Shown here in pieces: positions 18,938 through 56,466 of a stretch of 64,000 bases of DNA. The stretch is taken from NCBI GenBank assembly GCA_964371045.1, contig CAYJMN010000003.1:1459-65458 (forward strand), in the 5' to 3' direction. Numbering within the stretch: position 1 is the first letter of the stretch; every line of letters starts with the position of its first letter. The position numbers and the translations under genes are program-made. This stretch comes from an uncultured Chromatiales bacterium (GTDB taxonomy: Bacteria; Bacteroidota; Ignavibacteria; SZUA-365). The notes beneath the pieces were generated by a model. That model worked only from the letters and a program-made list of their open reading frames with translations, made no database searches and had not been told where the DNA came from.

Positions 18938-19009
18938 TGGGTAATCCCCACGGTTCAGGTCAATATGTCCGGTTGCTCTCTCATAAAACGGGGCACTGGA
19001 GTGTAGACC

Positions 19010-28527: not shown

Positions 28528-28719
28528 GCCGTACAACATCGCTCACAATACGTTCGCACCCGCTGAACAGATGGTCCGCATGTACAATGCGTGATTATCC
28601 GGTATCATCTTGCCGTTCGAAGAAACTTCGGCTTGTAGAATTCCCTTTTACTTCCGGGTGCCCATGTGGGCAAGGCCCGAACCATCCATCACTCTTTACA
28701 TATTTCTCCAGGAGGATTC

Positions 28720-34521: not shown

Positions 34522-34842
34522 ACAGCACCTCGAAGATGGAGATCACAATGTACACATCGTACCAAGGGTAGACACATGAACGGCCCATTCGTTCCCTTTG
34601 CGGAAAAAATATTTTTCGGAAATGAGCGGACCTGTCTGTCTGCCGCTTATGCTACGAGTCGTTTCCATCAAATGCAAATGTTTTCTTACATTGGGGTCTG
34701 AAAGCGCGCATGATGGCGAAGATGGGTAGGCGCTGCCTCACGGTTACGCGTTGCAGTGTCTCCCGCTCCGATTCGACAGGAACTCCCTCCGGATCGATCG
34801 ATCACGTACCCCACAGCCGACATTCACATACGGAGCTTCATA

Positions 34843-36153
34843 ATGATTTATGAACTTTTAACCGGTCAACACTCTCCCGAGGAACAGCAGCTTCGCTATA
34901 AACTGCGATTCCTGTGGCAAAGCGACGGATATTCCGCTGCGGACCCGATCGTCAATCTCCTTCTCCACGACAACGACAGGGACGGATTGCTGTGGGGTAT
35001 GAGATACATACTCGACACACGCAAGTCGCCGGATTACCACTCAGGCATACGCCGGTCCTGCGAACTCGTGGAATCGGATCTCTCTCTTGAGGAACAATTC
35101 CGCATGTTGTATTTCCTCCTGGAGGATCATCAGGATACACTGATCATCAATTTCGTCACAGTGTTCGTGCAGAAGATCTGTCGCGTCGATAGTATTCCGG
35201 ATAATCATATTCCATTGTATCAGAAGGCGGGAGAACGACTGATTGCGGCTGGTCTGATTTCCCTCGGAAGAGATCTGCTGGAATTCCTCCTTGACACCGC
35301 ACCGATCAAAGCTTCAATCGCTGCTTACTCTTCGATGGTATCCATGGTTGGCGACGTTCGGGAAAACCCGCAAAACGAATTCCGGGCGCTGTTCCAGATG
35401 CTCCTCAAACGATTCAATATCCAACTCAGCGCCGAGACGACGGCCGAAGTGCACGAGAACTGGCACGAACCGATGCTGATGGCATGGTTCAATCTTATGA
35501 ACGAGTCCCCCGTCCCCCGGTACCAATACATGACGCGCGAGGAAAGAATTGAATATCTCGCCGGCCTGGCTGATAAAACGATGTATTTTGTGAAGCATCC
35601 CGAAGAGCGCTCACTTGACGACATTCTTCGCGGTTTGTTCGTGCTTGATATCGAGTGGAGGGAGGAGTTGTTTGGCCTTGAAGTAGATCCTGACGTTCCC
35701 TCCGAGGATGAATCCGATTCCATGCATCTCCCGGAATTCGACGATGAAGACTACCTCCGCTGCGTGGACTTCGTGCTCGATCATTTCGATCATTACCTGC
35801 CGGACAATAAAGCTGAAATCAAAGCCTTTGTACCACTCCTCTACCTCCCCATCTATGCGATGGATTACAAAATGCCCGAACTCCGCAGTGACCTCGAAGT
35901 CAAAGTGGACGGCACGTACCTTGCGACATTTATCCGTGACATGGCCGAGGTGGTTCAAATACTGTGGGAGATGCTTTCGGAGTACGATGAGGTGGGTAAG
36001 GCCTTGATGGCGATCGATGCCAATGATATTCTACTTGAGCACTGTGGTGAAGGTGTTTCAACCGAGGCGATCGAAATTTTCATCTCCACGCTGAAGACCG
36101 AAAAGAAAACCATACAGCGCGTCATGAAGGAATACAGGCACGGAGAGCGTTGA
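34843..36153 (+). CDS. hypothetical protein
   Basis: 436 aa from the ATG at 34843. No signal peptide. About 50% GC. Confidence 0.55.
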   Translation: MIYELLTGQHSPEEQQLRYKLRFLWQSDGYSAADPIVNLLLHDNDRDGLLWGMRYILDTRKSPDYHSGIRRSCELVESDLSLEEQFRMLYFLLEDHQDTLIINFVTVFVQKICRVDSIPDNHIPLYQKAGERLIAAGLISLGRDLLEFLLDTAPIKASIAAYSSMVSMVGDVRENPQNEFRALFQMLLKRFNIQLSAETTAEVHENWHEPMLMAWFNLMNESPVPRYQYMTREERIEYLAGLADKTMYFVKHPEERSLDDILRGLFVLDIEWREELFGLEVDPDVPSEDESDSMHLPEFDDEDYLRCVDFVLDHFDHYLPDNKAEIKAFVPLLYLPIYAMDYKMPELRSDLEVKVDGTYLATFIRDMAEVVQILWEMLSEYDEVGKALMAIDANDILLEHCGEGVSTEAIEIFISTLKTEKKTIQRVMKEYRHGER

Positions 36154-36288
36154 CGCATTCGGGCGCGCAGGTCTGCTGTTCAGTGAAGCTGCACGAATGT
36201 CACTCCCGCAGGCGCAGTGCGTCTATACGATGAGCGACTACAGGCAAACGGCCCGGCGCGGACATTCATCCGCCCCGGGCCGCTCGTT

Positions 36289-39200
36289 CTACGGCAATAC
36301 CACGAAGCTCCGCGTCGCTTCTCCGCTCGCTGTGCGCAGCGAAATGAAATAGACACCGGAACGAAGTCTGTCCGTGTCTATCACGATGCTGCCCTGGCCG
36401 TCAGCGGACGCCGCTTCGGTGCGGGACAGAATCTCGCGGCCCAGCACATCGCGCACACTGATACGGCTCACGCTGCCGACGGGGACACTGTACGGCACGG
36501 TCGTCCGCTCGCCTCGCACCACGGGATTCGGATGACTGTCGTACAGCGCGACGCCCTCCACGGGACGCGGCGCGGCAACAGACAGCGGCGAGACGATGGA
36601 GTACACCACCTGGATATCGCCGGGTGTTATCGGCGCGGGATGAAGTTCGATCTTTCCGTAATGCTTGCCGATCGGCAGGTCCGTGGTGACGGGTTGCACG
36701 TTCATGACCGTCCGCGCGTTGCCGTCCAGCGGGATCGTCGACAACCACGACGGCGATTGCGCCACCGACCACGCCGGGGTCGGTCCGCCGCCGGTCCAGA
36801 GCGTCACCGATTTCGACGCGGGCAGCGCTCCGAGATGCTCGGCGGTGAATCGCAGCAGCCAGGGCGTCAGCACGATTCCGTCCGGATCGCGCGCGGTGAT
36901 GGTCACTGTCGATTCACACGAAAGCGGCGTCTCCTGTCCATCGCAATCGGCGATCCAGCGCACCGCGACCGTCCCGGCGGCGGCCTGCGACTCCACGATG
37001 TCCAGCATCCACTCTGCGCTCGCTGACGCGCCTGGGAGGAGCGCGGGGATCATCTTGACGCTATCCTCCCCTGCCGCGAGAACGAGCACCGGAGGAAGCA
37101 CGATCGCGATGCGGCATGGCTTCGAAATCATCGTTCCCGTGTTGCGCACCGTGTACTGCAGCTGCAAGGGATCGGGAATCAGCGCTTCGTAGAAATTGTC
37201 GGCCCAGATCGTATCGTGACCGGCGGTGGAGCAATGCAACGACACGTAGCGCGGACCGCCTTCGATCAGCGTCGCCGCGTCGCAGGCGGAATGAATATCG
37301 CGGTCTCCGATGTCGATGGAGACGATGTAGCGCTCCTCCTCGTCCGTCGCAGCCCACAGCGGAGTCAGTTTCCAGGTGACGTCGACACTCGAACCGGCAT
37401 TCAACAGTGGAAGCACGCGCACGGGCATCGCGGGACCCACGAGCCGCGACCGTTTCAGCGACGCCGTATCGAGACGCGCCCGCACATTGACCAACGCGGT
37501 ATCCGTCGGATTGCGGAGCCGGAGTGTGACGTCGAATGGATCAGTCACATACTCACCGCGCGGCATATCGTAATGCACGGTGTCCGGAGACAGCACGAGG
37601 CATGGAATCCCGACAGCGGGGATGAATATCGTTTTTTCACACCGCGCCGCCTCCGAGGCGTCCGGCGCGTACGCCACGACGCCGATCGATGAAAGACGCT
37701 CCGTAGGCGAGGACAACGCGCGCAGCGACCACGACACCGTATCGCGTTCGCCCGCCGCGAGCTGCCGCAATCCCTTCAACCGCGCGTCCAGCAGCGCGAT
37801 CATGCCATCCGGAGGCAGCAGGATGTCCGCTTCTTTCAACGGCAGCGGAATGCTCCCGACATTGTGCAGTACCATGGTTGCGGTAAAGTCGGTTTGTGAG
37901 AGTAACCCATTTGAAGAATCGATATGGAGCGAATCCGGCAGGTCCAACGTGCAAAGGATTTCACCGCGCTGAACACGGATATTCACAATGGCTTCGCAGC
38001 GGTGTTCTTTCCCATCAGCCTCTGTGATATACACAAGACCGACGGTATCCGATACATCGTGGTCGATGGGTGGAAGCACGGCGAAGCGCCACTGCTGCAA
38101 CCTACGGAATCCTGGATTGACATAGAATCGATCCCGTCGCTCCACTTCGCCAGTGGCAAGTTGGAGGTGCGGCGCTCGCGACATGTCGAGTCGCTCCACG
38201 GTGTAAAAGCGCACGGTGTCCGCAGGATTCTCGATAGTCAGGCCAATCCCGAATTCCATCGGATCGCTGCGTCCGCTCATCGGATCCCATCGCACCGTCG
38301 GCGGCGAGATTGTGGAGCACACCGTGCCGTGCACACCGGGAATAGTGACGGTGAGTTCGCAGTACTGCGTTATTAAATCGAAGGTGTCCACCAGCACGGC
38401 CTTGAAGAAAACATCGCGGTAAAACTGCCACGAAAGCACCCGGAAACTGAACAACTCCTCCCTGTCGCTTCGTGGCGGAAGTTGCTGAAATGTTCTCTGG
38501 AGTGGAGTCAGAGAAAAGACACCCGTACCCGGCTGCACGACAAGGTTCAGCGCTTTGATTGGTGCCGGTTCGTCTCCGAGGTTGCGTACATGCACGAGGA
38601 CATGCAACGTATCGTTCGCAAGACGCAAGTCCTTGATTCCTGACTCCAGTTGGGGAAAACTCTTGATCGAGCAATGGACCTCGGTAGAGGCGAGATCCAT
38701 CAAGACAACTCGAACAGACCGAGTCCCGCTCGCGGTAACCGGACAAGGGGCATTCGGAGAAACTCGAAGGAAAAAGCGGAGTGACGCTGGATCGAGCAGC
38801 GTATCGAACGGCGCATGAAAAAACCACTCGAGTACGCGCGAGTCCCCGGGAGCGATGCTGGAGAGATACAGCTCCGATGGAGCCGATCCGTTCAGCAATT
38901 GTATGACACCGGGAATATTCAGCAGGACGCGAAGCGAATCCGACGTTGCGATGGAATCGACGTTGGTGATCCTCGCACGTAGTACACAAACCGATGGAGC
39001 AGCGATGCGTCGCAGGGTGTCAACGAACAATGTGTCCACGGCGTCAAGATCAACGGTCAGCGAGGTATTCAGACCCGGTGGAGGTGGAGAAATCGCCGGA
39101 CGCGGACAGATGCCGGGGATATCCAACCGGGTGAGCAGCAGGTCGTTACCCCCGGGGTTCGGTCCGGGCATGCCTGGCGTCGGCTGCATGTTGGTGCCTG

Positions 39201-41097
39201 TCGTCGCGGAAGCCAAAAATAACGACCGCTCGTGCAGTGAGAGCGAATACTCGGCGCTACCGCCGTACCAGCTGCAGAAAAGCACCGAGGCGGTTGTTGG
39301 ATCGATGACGGCGATGAAGGATTCGGGGGACGTCGCCACGCTGGTTTTATTCGCGATGGCGCCTACTTGCGGAAGATCGGCTGAATTGCTCTGTCCTGAA
39401 ATGATGATTCTACCGCAGGCATCGACATCCATTTCGCTGAACTGATCGGTGCCCGACCCGCCAAAATACGTGGAGAAGAGAATCTGCCCCCGGGGAGAAA
39501 TGCATCCCATGACAATATCGCTCGATCCGGTCGGTACAATCTTGAACCCCCGCACTATGGGAAATCCCGGCGCGTTTGTCTGAAATGCGAAATACAGATT
39601 CCCTGTGGAATCAAAGCGCATCGCACGCCGACCATATCCGCTGTACACGGCGTACGCTTCACTCAGGTAGGAAGAGTAATCGATCTCCCCATGCTCCGAA
39701 GCTAGTTTGGTGATCACCGCTCCGTTTGAATTCGGAGGCGTGGGAATCAGAGGATTCACTATGGGATATCCGGGCCTGGATGTCGCTCCGCTGACCACGA
39801 CTTCCCCATGATCCCCGACGGCGATGCACTGGTACTCTTCGTGTCCGGGTCCGCCCATCAGGGTGGCGTAGGTCAATGTCCAGTCACAGCTGGAATATTT
39901 CATGATGAAGCCGTCCTCAATACCCTGGAGGACATTGAGGTAGGCATCGTCCGTGACCATCGGAGGGGTGTAATACGTATGCGCGAAAAGAAACACATCG
40001 CCGTTGGCTCCGACGGCCATATCACAGATCAGTTGCAAGGTCTGCGTCTGGATGTAGGAAACGTACTCCCGCGCCCCGATGGGATCGAGGATAATGAATC
40101 CGTACGGACTGTAGATCGTATCCCTCGCGTCGGGTGTCAGCAGGTTCGCGAGATTCGTGTTCCATACCAGCAGAATAGTGCGGTCGTTGATGCCGATCTC
40201 CATGTCCCGCACTGAATTTCCATAGAATCCGTATGAGAACACGGTGCTGTGAATCACTGTCCGTCCGTCGGGTGAAATTTTCACGACGTAATCACCGTAG
40301 GTAAATTTGAACAGCAGCGAATCCGCCGGCACGAGGGGAAAATCAGGCGAAATCGTCGATCCCGCCAGGGTCGGATTGCCCTCGCTGTCCACACGAACGA
40401 GCGGGTTGGACTCATTCTTCGTCCCGCCATGAAACAGCGTAAATCCCACCGTCACTGTGAATGCGTACGGCCGCACATAGCCGCCGCCAAGCGTAATCTC
40501 GGTGGTGCCATCGCTGGTTTGACGAATGATGGGGTTCACCGCCGCATCGCCACTCTCGACCTGCAGTGCTCCCGGTGAAACGTTTTCGAAGTGCAACTTC
40601 ACCTGCGAGGGATCGGCCCTGGCGGCTACGTGTATCTCATGCCGAAGCTCGCCAGCGTCGCCTTCAACGCGTACATCGATCCCTTTCCACGCCTGAGCGT
40701 ATGTCAATGAGGATGTCGCTGGCAGCAGGGACTCGCGTGCTTGATTGGCGGAGCCATCGATCAATCGCAACGGTGCGACGGTCGCACCACTTTGCGCGGG
40801 ACGCAAATCCACACGCGTACCGAACATTTCCATGGATGAAAATACAGGGCGAGGCTGTTCCTGCTTGCCGCCATCACTGCCCGGAATCACGGCCACGCTG
40901 TAGCCATTGTTTGAAAACGACACCGTCGGTCCGTACCCTATGCTCGCGGCTTTGACGCGTGCGTCCCACTGACCGTCATTGAGCACGAAGGATCGGGGAA
41001 CCCGAATGCTCTCAACCCGTGGCGTAATCTGGGCGAGACCGGGTTCGCGCATGACGAACAACATGCACGCAAGTATGATCAATCGACGATGCTTCAT
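36289..41097 (-). CDS. giant SBBP-repeat surface protein with T9SS CTD (paralog A)
   Basis: 1602 aa. RBS ggagga. Signal peptide. N-terminal VPRSFVLNDGQWD (as in SBBP-family N-termini). Repeats of YFGGSGTDQ..DVDACG. C-terminal YDSHPNPVV...GVYFISLRTASGEATRSFVVLP. Confidence 0.9.
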   Translation of the reverse strand: MKHRRLIILACMLFVMREPGLAQITPRVESIRVPRSFVLNDGQWDARVKAASIGYGPTVSFSNNGYSVAVIPGSDGGKQEQPRPVFSSMEMFGTRVDLRPAQSGATVAPLRLIDGSANQARESLLPATSSLTYAQAWKGIDVRVEGDAGELRHEIHVAARADPSQVKLHFENVSPGALQVESGDAAVNPIIRQTSDGTTEITLGGGYVRPYAFTVTVGFTLFHGGTKNESNPLVRVDSEGNPTLAGSTISPDFPLVPADSLLFKFTYGDYVVKISPDGRTVIHSTVFSYGFYGNSVRDMEIGINDRTILLVWNTNLANLLTPDARDTIYSPYGFIILDPIGAREYVSYIQTQTLQLICDMAVGANGDVFLFAHTYYTPPMVTDDAYLNVLQGIEDGFIMKYSSCDWTLTYATLMGGPGHEEYQCIAVGDHGEVVVSGATSRPGYPIVNPLIPTPPNSNGAVITKLASEHGEIDYSSYLSEAYAVYSGYGRRAMRFDSTGNLYFAFQTNAPGFPIVRGFKIVPTGSSDIVMGCISPRGQILFSTYFGGSGTDQFSEMDVDACGRIIISGQSNSADLPQVGAIANKTSVATSPESFIAVIDPTTASVLFCSWYGGSAEYSLSLHERSLFLASATTGTNMQPTPGMPGPNPGGNDLLLTRLDIPGICPRPAISPPPPGLNTSLTVDLDAVDTLFVDTLRRIAAPSVCVLRARITNVDSIATSDSLRVLLNIPGVIQLLNGSAPSELYLSSIAPGDSRVLEWFFHAPFDTLLDPASLRFFLRVSPNAPCPVTASGTRSVRVVLMDLASTEVHCSIKSFPQLESGIKDLRLANDTLHVLVHVRNLGDEPAPIKALNLVVQPGTGVFSLTPLQRTFQQLPPRSDREELFSFRVLSWQFYRDVFFKAVLVDTFDLITQYCELTVTIPGVHGTVCSTISPPTVRWDPMSGRSDPMEFGIGLTIENPADTVRFYTVERLDMSRAPHLQLATGEVERRDRFYVNPGFRRLQQWRFAVLPPIDHDVSDTVGLVYITEADGKEHRCEAIVNIRVQRGEILCTLDLPDSLHIDSSNGLLSQTDFTATMVLHNVGSIPLPLKEADILLPPDGMIALLDARLKGLRQLAAGERDTVSWSLRALSSPTERLSSIGVVAYAPDASEAARCEKTIFIPAVGIPCLVLSPDTVHYDMPRGEYVTDPFDVTLRLRNPTDTALVNVRARLDTASLKRSRLVGPAMPVRVLPLLNAGSSVDVTWKLTPLWAATDEEERYIVSIDIGDRDIHSACDAATLIEGGPRYVSLHCSTAGHDTIWADNFYEALIPDPLQLQYTVRNTGTMISKPCRIAIVLPPVLVLAAGEDSVKMIPALLPGASASAEWMLDIVESQAAAGTVAVRWIADCDGQETPLSCESTVTITARDPDGIVLTPWLLRFTAEHLGALPASKSVTLWTGGGPTPAWSVAQSPSWLSTIPLDGNARTVMNVQPVTTDLPIGKHYGKIELHPAPITPGDIQVVYSIVSPLSVAAPRPVEGVALYDSHPNPVVRGERTTVPYSVPVGSVSRISVRDVLGREILSRTEAASADGQGSIVIDTDRLRSGVYFISLRTASGEATRSFVVLP

Positions 41098-41220
41098 GGT
41101 TTCCTCCGCGGATCGAGGCTGGATGCTCGATGCTTCTGCCGGTCAGGTCCGCTCGCTGATCCCGGCTCGTCTGTCTCAAGAACACCCTGGGCGGACATGC
41201 ATCCGCCCCTGGATTTTTTC

Positions 41221-44200
41221 TTACGGCAGCACGACGATGCTCCGTGTCGCCTCTCCGCTTGATGTGCGGAGCGAAATGTAATATACACCGGAACGGAGTC
41301 TGTCCGTGTCTATCACGATGCTACCCTGGCCGTCCACGGACGCCGCTTCGGTGCGGGACAGGATCTCGCGGCCCAGCACATCACGCACGCTGATCCGGCT
41401 CACGCTGCCGACGGGAACCCTGTACGGTAGGGTCGTGCGCTCGCCGCGCACAACGGGATTCGGATGGCTGTCATACAATGCGACGGTCTCCACCGGACGC
41501 GGTTCGGATACCGAGAGCGGCGCGATAATGGCGTACACAACCTGGATATCGCCAGGTGTTATCGGTGTGGGATGGATCTCGATCAATCCGCGATGCTCGC
41601 CGATCGGCAGGTCCGTGGTCACGGGTTGCACGCTCATGACCGTACGCGCATTGCCGTCGAGCGGGATCGTCGACAGCCACGACGGTGCCTGCGCCACCGC
41701 CCATGCCGGCGTGGGTCCGCCACCGGTCCACAGCGTCACGGACTTCGATGCCGGCAATGCGCCGAGGCGTTCGGCGGTGAAGCGCAGCAGCCAGGGCGTC
41801 AGCACGATCCCGTTCGGATCGCGCGCGGTGATGGTCACTGTCGCTTCACACGACAGCGGCGTCTCCTGTCCGTCGCAATCGGCAATCCAGCGCACCGCGA
41901 CACTCCCGACCGCTACCTGCGACTGCACGATATCCAGCATCCACTCCGCGCTCGCCGAAACGCCCGGGAGTATCGCGGAGATCATCTTGACGCTATCCTC
42001 CCCCGCCGCGAGAACGAGCACCGGAGGAAGTACGATCGCGATACGGCACGGTTTCGAGATCATCGTTCCCGTGTTGCGCACCGTGTACTGCAGTTGCAGA
42101 GGATCGGGGATGAGCGCTTCGTAGAAATTGTCGGCCCAGATCGTATCGTGACCGGCGGTGGAGCAATGCAACGACACGTCCCGCGGACCGCCTTCTATCA
42201 ATGTCGTCGCGTCGCAGGTGGAATGAATACCGCGCTCTCCGATGTCGATGAAAACCACATAGTGTTCCTCCTCGTCCGTCGCGGCCCACAGCGGAGTCAG
42301 TTTCCAGGTGACGTCCACGCTCGCGCCCGCATCCAGCAATGCAATCACGCGCACGGGCATCGCGGGACCCACGAGCCGCGACCGTATCAGCGACGCCGTA
42401 TCGAGCCTTACCTGCACATTGACCAATGCGGTATCCGTTGGATTGCGGAGCCGCAGTGTGACGTCGAACTCGTCCGTTTCATACTCGCCGCGCAACACAT
42501 CGTAATGCACCGTGTCGGGGGATATGACGAGGCATGGAATCCCAACAGCGGGGATGAATATCGTTTTCTCGCACCGCGCCGCCTCCGAGGCGTCCGGCGC
42601 ATACGCCACGACGCTTATCGACGAGAGCCGCTCGGTCGGCGAAGACATCGCGTGCAGCGACCACGACACCGTATCGCGTTCGCCCGCCGCGAGCTGATGC
42701 AAACCCTTCAACCTTGCGTCCAGCAGCGTGATCATGCCGTCGGGAGGCAGCAGTATGTCCGCCTCTTTCAGAGGCAATGCGGCGATGCCCACATTGTGGA
42801 ACACCGCCGTCGCGGTAAATTCCGAAGGAGAAATTAGGCCAGTTATCGTATCCAGATGGAGTGAATCCGGCAGCAGGAGATCGCACACAATTTCATTGCG
42901 CTCTACGCAAATATTCACGACGGCATCGCAGACATGCTCCTTCCCATCAAACTCCGTGATATACACAATCCCCACCGTCTCTGATACATCCTCATCGATG
43001 GGCGGTATGACGGCAAGATTCCAATTCTGCTTACGCCGGTAGCGATCCGCGACAAAGAATCTTGGGCGTTGTTCTATCTCCCCCACATCAAGTTTCAGAT
43101 GCGGAGCCCGTGAGAAATCGAGGCGATCCACTGTGTAGAAGCGCATGGTGTCCGATGGATTTTCAATGGTCAAGGCAATTGGTATCGGGTAGGGATCACT
43201 TGATCGGGCAACCTGATACCATTTCACTTCGGGCGGTGACGTGGTGGAGCAGATGGTTCCAGTCACGCCGGGGATTGTCACGCTTATCTCACAATGTTCA
43301 GTTTCGTAGTCGAAGGTGTCGATCAGTGCCGCAGTGAGTGTTATTGCTCTATTGATTTGCAATGAAAGGACTCGAAACAAGAATTCAGCCTCCACATCAC
43401 TCTTTGGGGGAATTGCAGCGATTGGTCGCAGAAGGGATGGCGATAAAAGGCGGAGAGTCGCAGCGTGCGGGTCGTGCAATCGGATGGCTTTGATCGGCGC
43501 AATGCTGGTGCCCACATTGTGGACGCGAACGCGAACATGCAGGGTGTCGTGTACCAATCGCATGCCCTGGATATCGACTTCTGGTTGAGGAAAACTTTCG
43601 AGCACGCAGTGTACTTCCTTGTACGAAAAATCTTCATGTATCACTGGGATGGTTTTCATCTGACTCGAGGATGTTGGGCAGACGTCAATCGGGAGAGCGC
43701 TTACGATGAATCGAAGCGAACCAACATTTCTCAACGAGTCGTAAGGTGAATGCAGTAACCATTCCAGTAATCGCTTTCCCTGCGGAGGCAGCCCCGGGAC
43801 AACTAATTCCAAAGGGATAGAACCAGCACGCAATTTGATTGCAAGAGGTATAGCGAGGCGGACGAGAAGCGAATCCGAGGTCAAGTGAGAATCGAGATTG
43901 CTGATGGTTGCCCGAAGGACGAAATTCGTGGGTGTCGCAACGCGACGGAAGGTATCCACGCGAACCGAACTCACGATGTCAATATTTACAGACAACATCG
44001 GGCCTCCTCTAGATAACGGTGGAAGCGCTACACGGGGGCAAAGTCCGGGTATATCCAATCGCGACAGGACGATATCACGACCGGAGGGATTTGGACCAGG
44101 CATGCCTGCTGAGGCTTGCATATTGTCGCCGGTCGTTGCCGATGAAATCAGGACGGAATTGTTATGCAGTGTGAGCGAGTATGGCGTCACCCCACCGTAC

Positions 44201-46023
44201 CAGCTGCAAAACGGGATGGTTGCTGTATGCGGATTGACGACGGCAATGAATGCTTCCTGCGTCGGGACAGTTGTAACTCGACCGGCAATCGGCGAGACAA
44301 TGGGCAAATCAGCGGAGTTACTGAACCCGGTAAGAATCATATTTCCGCAAGCATCGACGGTAAGCTCGTTCACAGACTCTGACCCCATCCCTCCAAAGAA
44401 TGAGGAGAAGATAAGTTGTCCCGTGGGTGAAAAACAAACGAGCACGATATCGGTTGTGCCTTCGACAGATCCCTTCATGCTCCTGAAAAGGGGAAAATCC
44501 TGGCAGGGTGTTTCTCCGGCGAAATACACCCTCCCCGAAGCATCAAAGCGGAGCCGTCTTACATTGCTCTGTCCCCGTATCTCCGACACCTTTCCACCAA
44601 GAAACGTCGAGAATACGATGCTTCGAAAATCAGGTTCGAATTTGGTGATGATATAGTCACTATCTCCGTTGGACGCGGACTGAACTGCGTTCACGACGGG
44701 ATACGTACCCCGATCGATCATAATACCTAGAATGGCTATTTCATTGGAATCGCTCAAGGCAATGTGAGTGTACTCCTCGTGCCCTTTGCCCCCAAAGCAT
44801 GATGCGTAGATCAAGCTATAGTCACAACCAGAAAACCGCATGATGAAGCCATCCTCGGCGCCCTGATTTTTCTTGAACATGGCATCAGCCGTAACCATCG
44901 GAGGAGTTGAATAGGTATGCGCAATCATATATACGTCCCCATCGGGACCGCACTCCATATCCGCGATTTCCTGCAATCCATCGGTCAAAATGTAAGAGAT
45001 ATAGACGATCTCGCCGGCGTCACTCAACACGATTACTCCGTAGGAGCTAAATGTTGTGTGTTTCGCGTCAAATGTCAACAATGGTCCCAAATTTGTTCCA
45101 CCCACCAGAAGCACATGACGGTTTTGTATTCCTATCGCAGCGTCGACTAGTGAGATGTTGAATATAACCGTGCTGTGTTTTACCGTGCGCCCATCAGCGG
45201 AGAGCTTGACATCGAACATCATGGTTTGTAATAACGGTGGGAACGGTTTTGCAGGCAGAGTCGGGAAATCAAACGAATTGGTTGTCCCGCTCAGTCTTGT
45301 GTAACCGTCACGATCAACCCGTACAAATGTATCGGACTCCTCTCTCGTCCCTCCATAAAATAACGTAAATCCCACCGTCACCGTGAACGCGTACGGCCGT
45401 ACATACCCGCCTCCGAGTGTGATCTCCGTCGCGCCTGCGCTGCTTTGACGAATGAGGGGTTTTACCGCCGCGTCACTGCACTCGACATGCAATGCTCCTA
45501 AGGGAACGTTGTCGAAACGCAGCCTCACCTGCGAGGGATCGGAACCGGCTGCAACGTGTATCTCATGCCGGAGCTCCCCGGCGTCGCCCTCCATGCGCAC
45601 GTCGATCCCCTTCCATGCGTCGGCGTAGGTCAGGGAGGATGTCGCGGGCAACAGGGACTCGCGCGCGGGAGCGGCCGAACCATCGATCAACCGCAAGGGC
45701 GCGACGACGGCGCCGCTTTGCATCGGACGAATATCCTTGCGCACTCCGACCATTTCCATCGATGAAAATTTAGAGCCGGGCGCTTCATGTTTTTCGCTAC
45801 CCTCTCCCGGAATCACGGCGACGCTGTAGCCGCTGTTGGAAAACGACACCGTCGGTCCGTAGCCCATGCTCGCGGCTTTCACGCGCGCGTCCCACTGACC
45901 GTCATTCAGAACAAATGAGCGCGGCACCCGGATGCGCTCAATCTTCGGCGCATTCTGGGCGAGCGCGATTTCGCCCGTGAGCAAAAATATGCACGCGAGT
46001 ACAAGCAGTCGATGATGACTCAT
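41221..46023 (-). CDS. giant SBBP-repeat surface protein with T9SS CTD (paralog B)
   Basis: ATG at 46023 after ggagga (the tool ORF extends further to 46173). 1600 aa. Same architecture as A. Confidence 0.9.
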   Translation of the reverse strand: MSHHRLLVLACIFLLTGEIALAQNAPKIERIRVPRSFVLNDGQWDARVKAASMGYGPTVSFSNSGYSVAVIPGEGSEKHEAPGSKFSSMEMVGVRKDIRPMQSGAVVAPLRLIDGSAAPARESLLPATSSLTYADAWKGIDVRMEGDAGELRHEIHVAAGSDPSQVRLRFDNVPLGALHVECSDAAVKPLIRQSSAGATEITLGGGYVRPYAFTVTVGFTLFYGGTREESDTFVRVDRDGYTRLSGTTNSFDFPTLPAKPFPPLLQTMMFDVKLSADGRTVKHSTVIFNISLVDAAIGIQNRHVLLVGGTNLGPLLTFDAKHTTFSSYGVIVLSDAGEIVYISYILTDGLQEIADMECGPDGDVYMIAHTYSTPPMVTADAMFKKNQGAEDGFIMRFSGCDYSLIYASCFGGKGHEEYTHIALSDSNEIAILGIMIDRGTYPVVNAVQSASNGDSDYIITKFEPDFRSIVFSTFLGGKVSEIRGQSNVRRLRFDASGRVYFAGETPCQDFPLFRSMKGSVEGTTDIVLVCFSPTGQLIFSSFFGGMGSESVNELTVDACGNMILTGFSNSADLPIVSPIAGRVTTVPTQEAFIAVVNPHTATIPFCSWYGGVTPYSLTLHNNSVLISSATTGDNMQASAGMPGPNPSGRDIVLSRLDIPGLCPRVALPPLSRGGPMLSVNIDIVSSVRVDTFRRVATPTNFVLRATISNLDSHLTSDSLLVRLAIPLAIKLRAGSIPLELVVPGLPPQGKRLLEWLLHSPYDSLRNVGSLRFIVSALPIDVCPTSSSQMKTIPVIHEDFSYKEVHCVLESFPQPEVDIQGMRLVHDTLHVRVRVHNVGTSIAPIKAIRLHDPHAATLRLLSPSLLRPIAAIPPKSDVEAEFLFRVLSLQINRAITLTAALIDTFDYETEHCEISVTIPGVTGTICSTTSPPEVKWYQVARSSDPYPIPIALTIENPSDTMRFYTVDRLDFSRAPHLKLDVGEIEQRPRFFVADRYRRKQNWNLAVIPPIDEDVSETVGIVYITEFDGKEHVCDAVVNICVERNEIVCDLLLPDSLHLDTITGLISPSEFTATAVFHNVGIAALPLKEADILLPPDGMITLLDARLKGLHQLAAGERDTVSWSLHAMSSPTERLSSISVVAYAPDASEAARCEKTIFIPAVGIPCLVISPDTVHYDVLRGEYETDEFDVTLRLRNPTDTALVNVQVRLDTASLIRSRLVGPAMPVRVIALLDAGASVDVTWKLTPLWAATDEEEHYVVFIDIGERGIHSTCDATTLIEGGPRDVSLHCSTAGHDTIWADNFYEALIPDPLQLQYTVRNTGTMISKPCRIAIVLPPVLVLAAGEDSVKMISAILPGVSASAEWMLDIVQSQVAVGSVAVRWIADCDGQETPLSCEATVTITARDPNGIVLTPWLLRFTAERLGALPASKSVTLWTGGGPTPAWAVAQAPSWLSTIPLDGNARTVMSVQPVTTDLPIGEHRGLIEIHPTPITPGDIQVVYAIIAPLSVSEPRPVETVALYDSHPNPVVRGERTTLPYRVPVGSVSRISVRDVLGREILSRTEAASVDGQGSIVIDTDRLRSGVYYISLRTSSGEATRSIVVLP

Positions 46024-46049
46024 AAGGTCCTCCAATGCGGCAAGGTACG

Positions 46050-46160
46050 GTTCTTCGTCGTTCGTTCTTCGTTCCGAGTTCTTCGCTCTTCGCGCTTTGC
46101 TCTTCGCGCTTTGCTCTTCGCGCTTTGCTCTTCGCTCTTTGCTCTTCGCTCTTCGCCCGG
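46050..46160. repeat. tandem 15-mer (gctcttcgcgctttg) x5 in the B-C intergenic/promoter region
   Basis: 46083-46157 holds five tandem copies, preceded by a ttcg-rich stretch. Confidence 0.8.
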
Positions 46161-46191
46161 AGCGGACATTCACCCGCCCCGGGCGTGATTC

Positions 46192-49100
46192 CTACGGCAA
46201 CACCACGATACTCCGCGTGGCCTCTCCGCTCGCTGTGCGGAGCGAAATGAAGTACACGCCGGGCCAGAAGCGCTCGGTGTCGATCACGATGCTGCCCTCG
46301 CCGGTCACGGACGCGGCCTCCGTGCGCGACAGAATCTCTCGGCCGAGGACATCGCGCACGCTGATCCGGCTCACGCTGCCGACCGGAACCCGGTACGGCA
46401 CGGTCGCGATTTCGCCGCGTACCACGGGATTCGGATGGCTGTTGTACAGAGCGACGGTCTCGACGGGAAGCGGATCCGACACCGACAGCGGCGAGATTAT
46501 CGAATACACGACCTGAATATCGCCCGGCGTGATCGGTGCGGGATGGAGTTCAATTGTTCCGAAATGATCGCCGAGCGGCAGATCCGTGGTCACGGGTTGC
46601 ACGCTCATGACGGTACGGGCGTTGCCATCGAGCGGGATCGTCGACAGCCACGACGGTGCCTGCGCCACCGCCCATGCCGGCGTGGGTCCGCCACCGGTCC
46701 AGAGCGTCACCGATTTCGACGCGGGCAGCGCTCCGAGATGCTCGGCGGTGAAGCGCAGCAGCCATGGCGTCAGCACAATCCCGTCCGGATCGCGCGCGGT
46801 GATGGTCACTGTCGATTCACACGAAAGCGGCGCCTCCTGTCCGTCGCAATCGGCGATCCAGCGCACCGCGACACTCCCGACCGCTACCTGCGACTGCACG
46901 ATGTCCAGCATCCACTCCGCGCTCGCCGACGTGCCCGGCAGTATCGCCGGGATCATCTTGACGCTGTCCTCCCCCGCCGCGAGAGCGAGCACCGCAGGAA
47001 GCACGATCGCGATACGGCACGGCTTCGAAATCATCGTTCCCATGTTGCACACCGTGTACTGCAGTTGCAGGGGATCGGGAATCAACGCTTCGTAGAATTT
47101 GTCGCCCCAGATGGTGTCGTGACCGGCCGTTGAGCAACGCAGCGAAACATCCCGCGGACCTCCTTCGATCAGCCTCGTCGCATCACAGGTTGCATGAACA
47201 TCGCGGTCACCGAAGTCGACGGAGACGATGTAGCGTTCCTCTTCGTCCGTCGCGCCCCACAGCGGCTCCAGCTTCCAAATAACATCCACGCTGTTACCGG
47301 CATCCAGGATTGGAATCACTTGCTCCGGCATCGCAGGCCCCACCAGTCGCGACCTCTTTAGCGACACGGTATCCAGACGCACCTGCACATTAACCAACGC
47401 GGTGTCCGTTGGATTGCGGAGCCGCAGGGTAACGTCGAACACGTCCGTTTCGTACTCGCCGCGCAGAATATCGTAGTGCACGGTATCGGGAGCAAGCACG
47501 AGGCACGGAATCCCCACAGCGGGGATGAATATCGTCTTTTCACAGCGCGCAGCCTCTGAGGCGTCAGGCGCATACGCCACGACACCGATCGACGAGAGGC
47601 GCTCGGTCGGCGAGGACAACGCGCGCAGCGACCACGACACCGTATCGCGTTCGCCCGGCGCAAGTTGATGCAAACCCTTCAACCTTGCGTCCAGCAGCGT
47701 GATCATGCCGTCGGGAGGCAGCAGTATGTCCGCCTCTTTCAACGGCAGCGGGATCGAACCCACATTGTGGAATACCGCGGTCGCAGTAAAATCCGATTCT
47801 CGTAATAATCCCGTCGACGCATCTACTTCAAGCGAATCCGGCACCTGCAGATCGCACACAATTTCATTACGCTGCATGCGGATTTTCACGACCGCTTCGC
47901 AGACATGCTCTTTCCCATCCAGCTCCGTGATATGCACAATCGCCACAGTGTCTGATACATCCGTATTGATAGGCGGAATGACCGCAAGATTCCATCGCTG
48001 TTTCCGCTTGTTCCGATCATAGACAAAGAATCTCTCGCGTTGTTCGATTTCTCCCGTGTCCAGCCGCAGATGCGGAGCGCGCGAAAAATCGAGGCGATCG
48101 ACAGTGTAGAACCTCGTGGTATCCGTCGGGTTTTCTATAGTCAACACGACCTGCACTGGGTGAGGATTACTCGTCCGGGATATTTGATCCCAGATCACCG
48201 TCAGAGGAGTCGGAGTCGTGCAGACCGTGCCTGTCACACCGGGGATCCGGACGGTACCTTCGCAGTACTGCATTGTAAAATCGAAGGTGTCCACAAGGGC
48301 CGCCATGAACGTCACATCCCGGTTCCACTGCCACGACAGCACCAGGAAGCTGAACAACTCCTCTCTCTCGCTTTTGGGCGGAAGCTGCGGGAAGGATCTC
48401 TGGAGCGGCGTCAACGACATCATACCGCTGCCAGGCGGCACGATGAGATTCAGCGCCTTGATCGGTGCGATGTTGTCGCCAAGGTTTCGTAAACGAACCC
48501 GAACATGCAGCGTGTCATGAGCCAGGCGCAGCCCCTGAACTCCGACCTCCGGTTCGGGAAAACACTCGACCGAGCAGTGGACCTCCGAATAGGAGAGATC
48601 CCTGAAAACAACTCGCAACTGCAGATGAGCGCTGGCTGTAAACGGACAGGGAGCACTCGGAGATGAACGAAGCAGAAAGCGGAGTGATGTAACGTCCAGC
48701 AACGAGTCGAATGGCGTATAAAAAAACCATTCGAGAACGCGCGTATCCCCCGGAGCAATACGGGAGAGGTATCGTTCTGCCGGGGACGATCCGTTCAACA
48801 GGCGCACAACTCCGGGTATACGCAGTAACACGAGGAGCGAATCCGGGGTCGGTAAGGAATCCACATTGGTGAACCTCGCACGCAGGACAAAGGTTGTCGG
48901 AGATGCGATACGCCGCAGAGTGTCCACGAACAGTGTGTCGATAGCGTCGAGCTCAACAGTTAATACCGTACTCAACCCAGCGGGGACTGGAGGAATTGCC
49001 GGTCGCGGGCACAGACCGGGAATATCCAGACGAGTGAGCAGAAGATCGTAACCTGTCGGATTCGCTCCTGGCATCCCAGGTGTCGGTTGCATGTTGCCGC

Positions 49101-51009
49101 TGTAAGACGCCGTAGCCAGAAATACCGATCGATCATGAACCGTGAGTGAATAACTGGCGTCACCACCATACCAGCTGCAAAAAAGTACAGAAGCCGTGGT
49201 TGGATCTATGACGGCTACAAAGGATTCAAGAAAGATCCCCATACTGGATTTGTTAGCAACCGCGCCAATGATCGGAAGATCGTCTGAATTGCTCAGTCCG
49301 GTAATGACAACTCTGCCGCAGGCATCGACATCCATCTCATGCAGCTGGTCACTTGCTGATCCTCCAAAATACGTCGAAAAGAGCAACTGCCCCTGGGGCG
49401 ATATACATCCGATGATTATTTCGTCTGATCCTGTGGGCGCGGTCTTGAATCCTCTAACGATCGGAAATCCCGTGGCAAATGTGGCAGATATTGTAAACGC
49501 GAAATAGAGGTTCCCGGACGAATCAAAGCGCATCACTCTCCGACGATATCCACCATAGCTGCCGGATGCCCCAGCCATATAGGAGGAAAAGTCGATCTCT
49601 CCTCGATCCGACGCGAGTTTCGTCATCACCGTCCCCCAAACACTCTGTGGCGTCGGTATCAGAGGCTTCACAATTGGATACCCAGGCTCGGATGTAAAGC
49701 CATTGACCGCAACCTCACCACGATCTCCGATGGCGATGCCGACGTACTCTTCATGTCCAGCCCCGCCCAGCATTGTCGCGTAGCTCATTGTCCAGTCGCA
49801 ACCCGAGTATTTCATGATGAAGCCGTCCTCTATGCCTTGAAGGACCTTGATGTACGCATCGGCCGTGATCATCGGTGGAGTAAAATATGTATGCGCGAAG
49901 AGAAACACATCACCCGTGGCGCCGACGGCCATGTCGGTGATTTCCTGCAGCTTCTCGGTCGGGATGTATGACACATACTCCTTTTCTCCGTTGGGATCGA
50001 GGATAACGAAGCCATAAGGGCTGTAGATCGTATCCCTTGCGTTGGGTGTCAGAAGATTCGCGAGATTGGTGTTCCACACGAGCAGGATCGTACGGTCAAG
50101 GATGCCGATTTCCATGTCCCGTACGGAATTTCCATAGAATGAGGATGTGAGTACAGTGCTATGAAGCACCGTCCGTCCGTCCGGTGCAATTTTCAGAACG
50201 AAAACACCATCGCCAAAATTGAATGGCAGCGAATCCGCGGGCACAAGAGGAAAATCAGGAGATTTCGTTGACCCTACCAGGGTCGGATTTCCTTCGCTGT
50301 CCACGCGCACGAATATGTTGCTCTCATCCTTCGTCCCCCCATGAAACATCGTAAATCCCACCGTCACCGTAAATGCGTACGGCCTCACGTACCCCCCGCC
50401 GAGCGTGACCTCGGTTGCACCATCGCTGGTTTGACGCACGATGGGCTTCACAACCGCATCGCCGCTCTCAACTTGGAGAGCGCCGACTGGAACGTTATCG
50501 AAGCGTAACTTCACCTGCGAGGGATCGGCCCCGGCGGCGACGTGTATCTCGTGCCGAAGCTCCCCGGCGTCGCCCTCGATGCGCACATCGATCCCCTTCC
50601 ACGCGTCGGCGTAGGTCAATGAAGATGTCGCGGGCAGCAGGGATTCGCGGGCGGGATTGGCGGAACCATCGATCAGTCGTAACGGCGCGACAGTCGCACC
50701 GCTTTGCACGGGACGCAGGTCCACACGCGTGCCGACCATCTCCATGGATGAAAATACAGGGCGAGGGTGTTCCTGTTTGCCATCGCCGGTGCCCGGGATC
50801 ACGGCCACGCTGTAGCCATTGTTCGAAAACGACACCGTCGGTCCGTACCCCATGCTCGCGGCCTTGACGCGGGCGTCCCATTGACCGTCGTTGAGCACGA
50901 AGGAGCGGGGAACCCGAATGTTCTCCACGCTTTGCGGTTTTTGGGCGAAACTGAGTTCCCCGATGAGCAGCAATGCGCAGACAAGAATAATCATCCGCTG
51001 AAACATCAT
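46192..51009 (-). CDS. giant SBBP-repeat surface protein with T9SS CTD (paralog C)
   Basis: Starts at the ATG at 51009 (or 51024). RBS ggagga. 1605 aa. Same architecture. Confidence 0.9.
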   Translation of the reverse strand: MMFQRMIILVCALLLIGELSFAQKPQSVENIRVPRSFVLNDGQWDARVKAASMGYGPTVSFSNNGYSVAVIPGTGDGKQEHPRPVFSSMEMVGTRVDLRPVQSGATVAPLRLIDGSANPARESLLPATSSLTYADAWKGIDVRIEGDAGELRHEIHVAAGADPSQVKLRFDNVPVGALQVESGDAVVKPIVRQTSDGATEVTLGGGYVRPYAFTVTVGFTMFHGGTKDESNIFVRVDSEGNPTLVGSTKSPDFPLVPADSLPFNFGDGVFVLKIAPDGRTVLHSTVLTSSFYGNSVRDMEIGILDRTILLVWNTNLANLLTPNARDTIYSPYGFVILDPNGEKEYVSYIPTEKLQEITDMAVGATGDVFLFAHTYFTPPMITADAYIKVLQGIEDGFIMKYSGCDWTMSYATMLGGAGHEEYVGIAIGDRGEVAVNGFTSEPGYPIVKPLIPTPQSVWGTVMTKLASDRGEIDFSSYMAGASGSYGGYRRRVMRFDSSGNLYFAFTISATFATGFPIVRGFKTAPTGSDEIIIGCISPQGQLLFSTYFGGSASDQLHEMDVDACGRVVITGLSNSDDLPIIGAVANKSSMGIFLESFVAVIDPTTASVLFCSWYGGDASYSLTVHDRSVFLATASYSGNMQPTPGMPGANPTGYDLLLTRLDIPGLCPRPAIPPVPAGLSTVLTVELDAIDTLFVDTLRRIASPTTFVLRARFTNVDSLPTPDSLLVLLRIPGVVRLLNGSSPAERYLSRIAPGDTRVLEWFFYTPFDSLLDVTSLRFLLRSSPSAPCPFTASAHLQLRVVFRDLSYSEVHCSVECFPEPEVGVQGLRLAHDTLHVRVRLRNLGDNIAPIKALNLIVPPGSGMMSLTPLQRSFPQLPPKSEREELFSFLVLSWQWNRDVTFMAALVDTFDFTMQYCEGTVRIPGVTGTVCTTPTPLTVIWDQISRTSNPHPVQVVLTIENPTDTTRFYTVDRLDFSRAPHLRLDTGEIEQRERFFVYDRNKRKQRWNLAVIPPINTDVSDTVAIVHITELDGKEHVCEAVVKIRMQRNEIVCDLQVPDSLEVDASTGLLRESDFTATAVFHNVGSIPLPLKEADILLPPDGMITLLDARLKGLHQLAPGERDTVSWSLRALSSPTERLSSIGVVAYAPDASEAARCEKTIFIPAVGIPCLVLAPDTVHYDILRGEYETDVFDVTLRLRNPTDTALVNVQVRLDTVSLKRSRLVGPAMPEQVIPILDAGNSVDVIWKLEPLWGATDEEERYIVSVDFGDRDVHATCDATRLIEGGPRDVSLRCSTAGHDTIWGDKFYEALIPDPLQLQYTVCNMGTMISKPCRIAIVLPAVLALAAGEDSVKMIPAILPGTSASAEWMLDIVQSQVAVGSVAVRWIADCDGQEAPLSCESTVTITARDPDGIVLTPWLLRFTAEHLGALPASKSVTLWTGGGPTPAWAVAQAPSWLSTIPLDGNARTVMSVQPVTTDLPLGDHFGTIELHPAPITPGDIQVVYSIISPLSVSDPLPVETVALYNSHPNPVVRGEIATVPYRVPVGSVSRISVRDVLGREILSRTEAASVTGEGSIVIDTERFWPGVYFISLRTASGEATRSIVVLP

Positions 51010-51220
51010 ACTCTCCTCCAACAAACGTTGCGGAATGTGCTTCTATGGAATGCATCCCGGCTGTTCCGCGCTACCAGGCAGCATCAGGCGTTGATTCAGC
51101 GTCTAGATCCCAGGGGAGGTTGATTAAGTGCAACAGGACCTCATATGTCCCGTTTCATGCGTTTCGGATGCTCTTATCACTCTTGCCAGTGAATCTACGC
51201 AGCTGTTTCGTCAAAGACAA

Positions 51221-56358: not shown

Positions 56359-56466
56359 AATCTCGTTCCATATCGCTGAATACAAACTGCGTGTTCGATG
56401 ATGCGTTCCGGCTACGTCTGTCGGCTGTGTAAGTGCATGAACAATTTCACGTGCACATTACGCTTT

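Follow-up and report, generated by a model that had tools for sequence, protein, structure and literature searches.

Probable partial concerted evolution in a tandem array of three giant T9SS cargo genes from an uncultured Bacteroidota bacterium

We analysed a 64,000-nucleotide stretch of DNA (the window) from an uncultured Bacteroidota bacterium and found three head-to-tail minus-strand genes, A, B and C, each coding for a predicted T9SS-secreted protein of ~1600 amino acids. The triplicated genes have probably undergone partial concerted evolution, in which the ends were overwritten by conversion and the propeller and proximal stalk evolved independently. Gene conversion at the ends had been proposed in the initial annotation of this DNA. 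By sequence comparison, concerted evolution of the 3' 1.53-kb block is strongly supported (low dS, mosaic topology, an A-to-B tract, and paralogs more alike than orthologs in related arrays), while conversion of the 5' ~0.75 kb is plausible and has weaker backing.

In transcription order the genes are C, B and A. C (46192-51009, minus strand) encodes 1605 aa, B (41221-46023, minus strand), the middle copy with the most divergent centre, 1600 aa, and A (36289-41097, minus strand), the last copy, 1602 aa; these ORF coordinates bear out the earlier description of three tandem ORFs of 1600-1605 aa on one strand. The A protein is identical to P0001 (on 29 contigs) and the C protein to P0095 (on 24 contigs). 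For B, we chose the ATG at 46023 by paralog alignment and by a GGAGGA 6 nt upstream; the mechanical ORF reaches a GTG at 46173. All three copies have GGAGGA 4-6 nt ahead of the ATG, confirming that they carry the same RBS. No ORF was found inside the 123-nt and 168-nt intergenic spacers. A relative, P0004, has a single copy with the same DUF362 downstream neighbour, in line with a tandem triplication of one gene that is specific to this lineage.

All three proteins have the same domain order: signal peptide, DUF7948, seven-bladed beta-propeller, six CARDB-like beta-sandwich modules, Ig-like domain and T9SS type-A CTD. The signal peptide was read from the sequence (positive start, hydrophobic core and a small-residue motif ending AQ, e.g. 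MKHRRLIILACMLFVMREPGLAQ), and AF2 made aa 2-16 helical, with a linker of low confidence behind them. DUF7948 (PF25778) passed with 50.6-54.3 bits against a cut-off of 27, at aa 37-174. The propeller (aa ~216-660; in A, 39118-40452, minus strand) was modelled by AF2 with ~7 four-stranded blades and a pLDDT of 83. Its best Foldseek match was the CylK propeller (E 3e-17), which was also found in a PDB profile search (E 5e-4). BLASTP aligned aa ~27-660 to annotated SBBP proteins with E values of 1e-20 to 1e-40 and with out-of-register repeat matches. The Pfam SBBP model (PF06739) gave no match at E<=0.01 on full-length A, B or C; on central fragments at E<=10 it matched C only, without significance (E 0.077, 13.4 bits against a cut-off of 20.5). 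The SBBP propeller of the initial annotation therefore stands by fold and by homology to SBBP proteins; Pfam membership was rejected as sub-threshold, and we call the domain SBBP-like.

The stalk modules, of ~120 aa each, span aa 664-1394 (in A, 36916-39108, minus strand) and are bounded by Cys. BLASTP self-comparison of the stalk revealed no internal repeats; to see the modules, we had to divide the sequence at its regularly spaced pairs of Cys. The pattern shared by the six resembles what we take to be the CARDB motif, though with the CARDB profile (PF07705) only A matched, and weakly (18.6 bits against a cut-off of 22.7). An AF2 model of aa 660-1520, built on a five-sequence alignment, consisted of beta-sandwiches at moderate confidence (pLDDT 65.6, pTM 0.34), with the last ~120 residues, the Ig-like domain, lacking a resolved fold; Foldseek returned generic Ig/MG-domain strings for this model. 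The CTD (aa 1523-1600 of A; 36298-36531, minus strand) passed TIGR04183 in all three proteins (A 30.4, B 26.8 and C 26.3 bits against a cut-off of 23), as had been claimed, and scored 20-24 bits with PF18962 (A 24.1), under its cut-off of 27. A relative, P0097, bears the NCBI name 'T9SS type A sorting domain-containing protein'. This domain would be expected to route the proteins through the T9SS and to attach them to the surface of the cell. On this architecture the proteins would be displayed at the surface, with the propeller head presumably binding a ligand, and to regard them as putative variable surface adhesins, as was suggested initially, seems sensible. Across the window, at least seven genes carry type-A CTDs.

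The copies are most alike over their last 510 aa (1.53 kb), a block that starts abruptly at LLPPDGMI (aa 1093; alignment column ~1091) and runs to the stop codon, occupying 36289-37821 in A, 41221-42753 in B and 46192-47724 in C (all minus strand). Identity between copies in this block is 87-89% for protein and 85-88% for DNA, and the longest exact nucleotide matches measure 59-76 nt, depending on the pair. The expected C-terminal plateau thus exists, but it is shorter than the 620 aa (1.8 kb) first given and is not near-identical. The first 250 aa (A 40348-41097, B 45274-46023, C 50260-51009, minus strand) form a moderately conserved 5' block with 73-82% protein identity, below the ~85% originally put forward. 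In the centre (aa 251-950) A and C share 72% of residues, and the outlier is B, with 47% identity to either; the earlier range of 40-60% fits B against A or C, but not A against C. In the transition zone (aa 951-1095) the closest pair is B and C, as already noticed (73%, against 65% for AB and AC). The divergent centre had been equated with the propeller region; we found that it comprises the propeller and extends into the stalk as well, through three and a half beta-sandwich modules (aa 664-1092). Identity changes at aa 1093, mid-domain inside module 4, which fits a recombination boundary and not domain-level constraint.

Synonymous divergence followed the same profile. Among copies, dS was lowest in the 3' block (0.41-0.54) and intermediate over the first 250 aa (0.58-0.98); the centre reached 1.09 between A and C, and comparisons of B with either were saturated there (pS 0.75-0.78). 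Nei-Gojobori dN/dS for A-C was 0.10-0.26 in every window, and by region it was 0.13-0.21 wherever computable, the saturated dS leaving the centre of B without a value. Low dN/dS throughout, together with regional dS, indicates that the plateau is not merely protein-level constraint. These ratios give no support to the suggestion that the exposed propeller diversified under positive selection; with dS saturated, the centre looks old and unconverted, not fast-evolving under selection. Against single-copy outgroups, A, B and C showed 25-55% aa identity along the whole protein, and the ratio of paralog to outgroup distance rose from 0.11 at the C-terminus to ~1.0 at aa 381-570. In a check for GC-biased gene conversion, GC3 was 0.76-0.78 in the converted blocks and 0.55-0.64 in the centres, and the same rise is present in a single-copy relative (O4).

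Neighbour-joining trees with bootstrap (our own code) gave a different grouping of the copies in different parts of the gene: A+C in the N-terminus and centre (89-100% bootstrap), B+C at aa 951-1034 (93%) and A+B at aa 1451-1602 (90%). Mosaicism was also assessed with site-pattern chi-square and run-permutation tests. Site patterns were heterogeneous over the whole gene (p = 1.7e-34) and inside the 3' block (p = 2e-4), and pair-identical runs were significant by permutation (p 0.0002-0.009), with none significant at the 5' end.

A contig from another sample (L009, 5.6x coverage) equals the window over 16.77 kb, save 45 substitutions. These are confined to 382 bp of gene B (gene nt 3912-4293; 41731-42112, minus strand), where L009 carries the base of A at 45 of 45 A/B-distinguishing sites, and its flanks are purely B, giving a tract of 382-457 bp. 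At the right junction A and B share only 8 nt, which makes a path switch in a de Bruijn graph impossible. On one low-coverage short-read contig, we thus observed what reads as an A-to-B conversion tract segregating between metagenome samples. In the reference genome, 3' blocks of 85-88% nucleotide identity without an exact match longer than 76 nt imply that conversion has been neither very recent nor frequent, and much of the 3' plateau could date from a single old homogenisation event.

Other members of the family also form arrays: three copies in L029/L030 (array E), two on a 5.24-Mb contig in L033 (array F) and at least two in L014, which was followed to aa ~1034, where its contig ends. All have divergent centres and a distal part that is 76-100% identical. 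Within E and F, paralogs of the same genome are 91-98% identical at aa 1308-1392, against 68-73% for copies of different genomes, and dS at aa 1300-1490 is 0.26-0.39 within and 0.66-1.09 between genomes. E2 and F2, orthologs from the two genomes, have 83% identity at aa 96-191, where the within-genome pairs E2-E3, E1-E3 and F1-F2 reach 22-44% (E1-E2, 77%). In both arrays, paralogs are therefore more alike than orthologs in the 3' segment only. F1 and F2 are 63% identical in the CTD and 98% in the segment just upstream. We found no array orthologous to A/B/C, for which the corresponding evidence is the monophyly of A+B+C.

The process that we favour would run as follows. Non-reciprocal homologous recombination between paralogs would repeatedly overwrite the last 1.53 kb, and the first ~0.75 kb would be overwritten likewise, more rarely or longer ago. 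Conversion presumably stops at its boundary because the propeller and proximal stalk are too diverged to serve as recombination substrates; these parts would evolve independently under purifying selection. The outcome would be a common stalk and export end with three different heads, presumably binding different ligands.

We consider it unlikely, although not without points in its favour, that the mosaic arose by replacement of cassettes, i.e. that the genes are recent duplicates whose ends have a common origin and whose centres, above all that of B, were imported from divergent alleles of other strains or species. The distance of B to A and C at aa 381-570 equals that to outgroups, and A+B+C monophyly has a bootstrap of 4% there. 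In L029, the N-terminal and central parts of E3 group with P0103 of another genome and its C-terminal part with E1+E2; relatives also differ in copy number, from 1 to 3. However, import would need homologous flanks on both sides, and between lineages the flanks are only 40-55% identical in protein. The duplication is not recent, given a dS of 0.4-1.0 at the ends. Topology shifts within the 3' block itself and the A-to-B tract shows exchange between paralogs in action, while the N-terminal orthology of E2 and F2 over two genomes fits old paralogs better.

Partial homogenisation could also be a selected design, a reading that we think quite unlikely. The distal stalk and CTD would then be a constant chassis that conversion keeps uniform, with a fixed mid-domain breakpoint and a conserved 3' hairpin, onto which propeller heads are exchanged within arrays and between strains. 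If true, this would amount to a cassette-style repertoire of surface binding specificities in free-living Bacteroidota. The same mosaic is seen in at least four independent arrays (the window, L014, L029 and L033), which is compatible with such a design and does not require it.

Returning to partial concerted evolution, we weighed it against differential purifying selection acting without recombination, with the ends (export signal, stalk) more constrained than the centre. Cross-species conservation against outgroups is indeed somewhat higher in the C-terminal third (41-55% against 25-45% aa identity), so that constraint explains part of the contrast between end and centre, and dN/dS is low everywhere. 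As the sole cause, though, it is very improbable: windowed dS ranges from 0.4 to saturation, the ratio of paralog to outgroup distance varies ~ninefold, topologies conflict along the gene, the 45-site tract of L009 is clean, and F1-F2 identity drops from 98% to 63% on entering the CTD.

Gene A occurs on 29 contigs of the index, of which 23 were read and resolved to three distinct places; the loci were fetched for those three. It is almost certainly wrong to regard the array, or the likeness of its ends, as an artefact of short-read assembly in which strain variants were collapsed or fused. In favour of an artefact, the exact-locus sequences are all short-read metagenome assemblies, apparently of one series (ERZ136929xx), and L009 breaks inside gene C. 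Against it, the three fetched loci, which lie on contigs of 119-201 kb, match the window at 100% identity over the 19.1 kb compared and have the same three genes, each distinct. Even the conserved block differs by 12-15% from copy to copy and contains no repeat above 76 nt, so that collapse is not expected. Family arrays also occur in unrelated assemblies, one of them the relative's two-copy array on the 5.24-Mb contig. The identity plateau was thus upheld as genuine.

Every stop codon of the array is followed by a conserved stem-loop (GGGGCGGRTGMATGTCCGC plus flanks), at 36245-36286 for A, 41184-41214 for B and 46154-46185 for C (minus strand). With one per gene, three were found in the window against 0.07 expected, in agreement with the 3' hairpin described earlier. 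Folding energies across the three copies are -25 to -38 kcal/mol, the lowest being that of A, which has no clear U-tract. Rfam and tRNA scans of the window returned nothing, the hairpins matching no known RNA family. As they also lack U-tracts, they are at most putative terminators.

Programmed antigenic or phase variation was considered and rejected. Each of the three genes has an uninterrupted reading frame and an RBS of its own. No inverted-repeat pair flanks the array (one 18-nt match looks like chance), and the window holds no further family fragments or silent copies. The sole tandem repeat, a 14-mer in the C-to-B spacer, is invariant in the four other assemblies compared. The suggestion of polymorphic cargo exchanged by recombination, taken in the sense of a toxin system, was likewise dropped: there is no variable C-terminal toxin and there are no immunity genes, the C-terminus is conserved, the spacers are ORF-free and Pfam and NCBIfam gave no toxin domain.

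A word-indexed protein search had returned two full-length relatives only, as if this were a near-orphan family. That view was overturned by an exhaustive profile search, which gave 113 cluster representatives at E<1e-30, among which the ~860-aa stalk defines a separate subfamily. A profile scan of genome contigs found four full-length relatives, and a scan with A alone found none; copy number among relatives is 1 to 3. We found no literature on the domains of the ~1600-aa family. The present analysis defines an architecture for this unannotated family and provides a case of concerted evolution below the level of the whole gene, in giant T9SS cargo of uncultured environmental Bacteroidota. It also suggests a repertoire of surface proteins in which the stalk is common and the propeller heads differ. 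Annotators and assemblers should be aware that the repeat-like 3' ends can break contigs, as L014 and L009 both end inside a copy.

In Staphylococcus aureus, too, three surface-protein genes, sdrC-sdrD-sdrE, lie head to tail; the signal and anchor ends of their products are conserved, and the ligand-binding A domains diverge. Unlike A/B/C, they are Gram-positive, LPXTG/sortase-anchored proteins with SD-repeat stalks and belong to an unrelated family. In Helicobacter pylori, the outer-membrane adhesin genes babA, babB and babC undergo intragenomic gene conversion, and the chimeras that result stem from exchanges in homologous stretches at the 5' and 3' ends (PMC4552749). The likeness to A/B/C lies in conversion between paralogs at homologous end regions. 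However, bab loci are dispersed and A/B/C are in tandem; Bab proteins are beta-barrel OMPs of the Hop family, whereas A/B/C are predicted T9SS cargo; bab genes undergo CT-repeat phase variation and A/B/C have no such coding repeat; and bab ends are much nearer identity than the 85-88% of A/B/C.

The rgpA, kgp and hagA genes of Porphyromonas gingivalis likewise encode surface proteins with a T9SS type-A CTD in a Bacteroidota species and have shared adhesin regions, and domain rearrangement and gene conversion have been proposed as sources of their diversity (PMC5266723). They differ in being dispersed and in their protease or CAD/DUF2436 domain architectures. They also share the adhesin region itself, whereas A/B/C share the distal stalk and CTD and differ in the head. 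Proteins with DUF7948 and SBBP (PF25778/PF06739), such as the product of the neighbouring 1976-aa gene at 56467-62397, have the same N-terminal DUF7948 followed by a beta-propeller, but A/B/C fall under the Pfam SBBP threshold and the ~860-aa stalk sets their subfamily apart. Concerted evolution of prokaryotic paralogs is usually discussed for mostly housekeeping-type genes, while here it is sub-genic and recurs in giant secreted proteins. The greater likeness of paralogs in the 3' segment of arrays E and F agrees with the description of paralog concerted evolution in prokaryotes in PMC6053082. The array is a new example, in an uncharacterised family, of an evolutionary pattern known for surface-protein families (bab, gingipain/HagA), and does not represent a new class of mechanism.

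The three giant genes form a head-to-tail series on the minus strand and are transcribed in the order C (46192-51009, 1605 aa), B (41221-46023, 1600 aa) and A (36289-41097, 1602 aa), with spacers of 168 and 123 nt between them. Start codons were picked by mutual alignment together with a GGAGGA box 4-6 nt upstream. Three long ORFs of ~1600 aa with the same ribosome-binding site agree with the initial annotation. The mechanical ORF of B is 150 nt longer and reaches a GTG at 46173; this 50-codon extension is spurious, arising because a 14-nt tandem repeat in the C-to-B spacer (GCGAAGAGCAAAGC on the gene strand; 46081-46153, 5.2 copies, 96% matching, directly upstream of B's ribosome-binding site) has no stop codons. 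The repeat has equal copy number in the other-assembly contigs carrying the array (L001-L003 and L009). The expected conserved 3' hairpin was found after all three stop codons as a stable stem-loop (core GGGGCGGRTGMATGTCCGC; dG -25 to -38 kcal/mol), a motif occurring 3 times in the window vs 0.07 expected. No clear U-tract accompanies these stem-loops, which may serve in termination, processing or stabilisation of the 3' end. Between gene A and a DUF362 gene (32881-34521, minus strand) sits an orphan ORF that matches no family (34756-36153, plus strand; 465 aa, or 436 aa as called in L001); in a single-copy relative, DUF362 directly follows the giant gene.

Pairwise identities of the proteins and codon-aligned DNA recovered the previously described mosaic of conserved ends and a diverged centre, though with different dimensions. 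The first 250 aa are 73-82% identical between copies, below the ~85% first estimated. Over aa 251-950, A and C share 72% of residues and B shares 47% with either, so that the proposed 40-60% holds for B but not for A-C, and the divergence is uneven. By sequence, A and C are sisters in the centre and B is the outlier. B and C are indeed closest in the transition zone (aa 951-1095: B-C 73%, A-B and A-C 65%). The last 510 aa are 87-89% identical (85-88% in DNA) for every pair, with an onset within ~10 codons at LLPPDGMI (A 1093, B 1091, C 1096). The C-terminal plateau thus exists, but is 510 rather than 620 aa long, and its DNA is not near-identical: the longest exact match between copies is 59-76 nt.

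The multi-domain secreted architecture of the proteins was established from profile and structural comparisons. DUF7948 (Pfam, aa 37-174) and a C-terminal T9SS type-A sorting domain (NCBIfam TIGR04183, as anticipated) scored above threshold; the Pfam CTD model scored slightly under its cut-off. The predicted SBBP repeats gave no significant hit with the Pfam model, even at E<=10, but aa ~27-660 align with annotated DUF7948+SBBP proteins (E 1e-20 to 1e-40), several of these alignments being out of register, as is typical of blades. The family profile matched the CylK propeller in PDB. A confident AF2 model of aa 1-700 (33-sequence alignment as input; pLDDT 83, pTM 0.67) contains ~seven four-stranded blades at aa ~216-660, and its top structural matches are CylK and other propellers. 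Downstream runs a stalk with Cys pairs at ~120-aa spacing; cutting at these pairs made visible six modules with a common CARDB-like motif, modelled by AF2 at moderate confidence as a string of beta-sandwiches and matched by Foldseek to Ig/macroglobulin-domain arrays. The ~125-aa domain before the CTD looks Ig-like by sequence, though it is not resolved in the AF2 model. The divergent centre covers the propeller plus the three and a half stalk modules next to it; the homogenised block starts within module 4 and takes in the remaining two and a half, followed by the Ig-like domain and CTD.

Such a profile could reflect constraint on the protein or recombination between copies. Windowed Nei-Gojobori estimates of dS were lowest in the 3' block (0.41-0.54) and higher in the 5' block (0.58-0.98); in the centre, A-C reached 1.09 and B was saturated. 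Since synonymous sites show the same mosaic, protein-level constraint cannot be its cause. Identity to single-copy outgroups is 25-55% along the entire length, and the paralog-to-outgroup distance ratio ranges from 0.11 to ~1 along the protein. Neighbour-joining bootstraps grouped A+C over the N-terminus and centre, B+C over aa 951-1034 (93%) and A+B over aa 1451-1602 (90%). Site patterns were heterogeneous over the gene (p = 1.7e-34) and in the 3' block alone (p = 2e-4), and pair-identical runs of polymorphic sites were significantly long. The 3' 1.53 kb is therefore under partial concerted evolution through gene conversion; for this block the low dS, the topology switches and the L009 tract described below uphold the conversion initially proposed for the ends. 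The diversifying change proposed for the centre found no support as diversifying or positive selection: dN/dS is 0.13-0.21 in every region where it can be computed, and purifying selection acts throughout.

One segment of B (aa 381-570, ~44314-44883, blades ~3-5) is as far from A and C as from outgroup species, with 4% bootstrap for A+B+C monophyly; this distance could stem from an ancient paralogous split, from faster change or from import of the segment. GC3 reaches 0.76-0.78 in the 3' blocks, compared with 0.55-0.64 for the centres of the genes and 0.64-0.71 for neighbouring genes. The raised 3' value would fit GC-biased gene conversion, but a similar rise occurs in the single-copy relative P0004.

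A conversion event was captured in another assembly. The protein cluster of B includes a variant, P0096, with ten differing residues, all at aa 1349-1419 and all ten those of A. Its contig, L009 (sample ERZ13692936), matches the window base for base over 16.77 kb apart from 45 substitutions, all in B (nt 3912-4293). A's base was found at 45/45 of these sites, and flanking A/B-distinguishing sites keep B's base. The left junction lies within a 67-nt stretch common to A and B; at the right junction just 8 nt are shared, so a k-mer graph path switch is impossible as the origin. We take the patch, known from this one 5.6x contig, to be a genuine A-to-B conversion tract of 382-457 bp.

The lipoyl synthase encoded in the window has its closest matches in MAGs of uncultured Bacteroidota, Bacteroidia and Ignavibacteria. 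A word-indexed search returned only two full-length relatives of the giant proteins, P0004 (39%) and P0005 (35%); an exhaustive search with a stalk-region profile gave 113 cluster representatives at E<1e-30, dozens of them 1600-1700 aa long and matched at the same position. In the literature search DUF7948 was unmentioned and 'SBBP repeat' appeared only in two papers on Leptospira. P0004's lineage has a single copy and the same downstream DUF362 neighbour, so the triplication is lineage-specific; P0103, P0005 and P0118 are likewise single-copy.

Other arrays of the family repeat the pattern. In L014 there are two or more tandem copies; their identity is 91-96% at the N-terminus, falls to 71-86% over aa 180-640 and reaches 95-100% thereafter. 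This contig (CAZWNO010000122.1) breaks off within the second copy, in the stretch where identity is 100%; its bin is labelled 'uncultured Chromatiales bacterium', though the family is of Bacteroidota-type T9SS, and the contig is probably mis-binned. The L029/L030 array has three copies (E1-E3), with identities of 16-55% in the centres and 85-94% over the last ~400 aa; in a relative, a 5.24-Mb contig (L033) carries two (F1, F2), syntenic with L029. Over aa 1308-1392 within-genome pairs of these arrays are 91-98% identical vs 68-73% between genomes, and dS over aa 1300-1490 is 0.26-0.39 within vs 0.66-1.09 between. At aa 96-191, E2 and F2 share 83% of residues across genomes, as against 22-44% for the divergent pairs within a genome (E2-E3, E1-E3, F1-F2); E1-E2 share 77%. 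The N-terminal and central parts of E3 cluster with P0103 from another genome and its C-terminal part with E1+E2. At the sequence level, the E/F comparison bears the defining signature of concerted evolution, limited to the 3' segment. After the third copy in L029 (14810-14900) the 82-nt spacer recurs, followed by the opening MKT codons of one more copy and then by unrelated sequence, a scar at the boundary of the duplication unit.

Gene conversion requires stretches of identity, so the distal stalk and CTD, being a little more conserved, would remain convertible; the propeller and proximal stalk, once diverged, would evade it. The CTD of T9SS proteins directs their passage through the outer membrane and, in type-A cargo, their attachment to the cell surface. 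The locus thus probably yields three surface proteins that share a stalk but differ in their propeller heads, the latter presumably having different ligands. Programmed phase or antigenic variation is unsupported, as is a polymorphic-toxin reading of the recombining polymorphic cargo that had been suggested.

A fourth giant gene (56467-62397, minus strand, 1976 aa) encodes DUF7948, true Pfam SBBP repeats, PKD, SprB and Ig domains; its propeller and the A, B and C propellers share just ~24% identity. The next gene (54304-56385, minus strand) encodes a 693-aa protein with two OmpA-like domains. Four additional type-A sorting-domain genes (12557-14917, 22627-23922 and 28666-30156, plus strand; 62471-63547, minus strand), two with Ycf48-like propellers, bring the T9SS cargo proteins encoded in the window to at least seven. 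G+C falls to 0.43-0.46 at 16000-22000 vs 0.53-0.62 elsewhere in the window, and this region may, from its composition, be a foreign island.

The array is a clean and replicated case with a segregating conversion tract, although specialists would not be surprised by it. Its closest analogues are the H. pylori bab paralogs, in which near-identical ends flank a divergent middle and the loci undergo conversion with one another (PMC4552749), and, among T9SS systems, the P. gingivalis rgpA/kgp/hagA adhesin regions, where identical repeats are found between genes (PMC5266723). Unlike these, A, B and C are in tandem and belong to an uncharacterised family, and it is the stalk and CTD that are homogenised, not the binding part.
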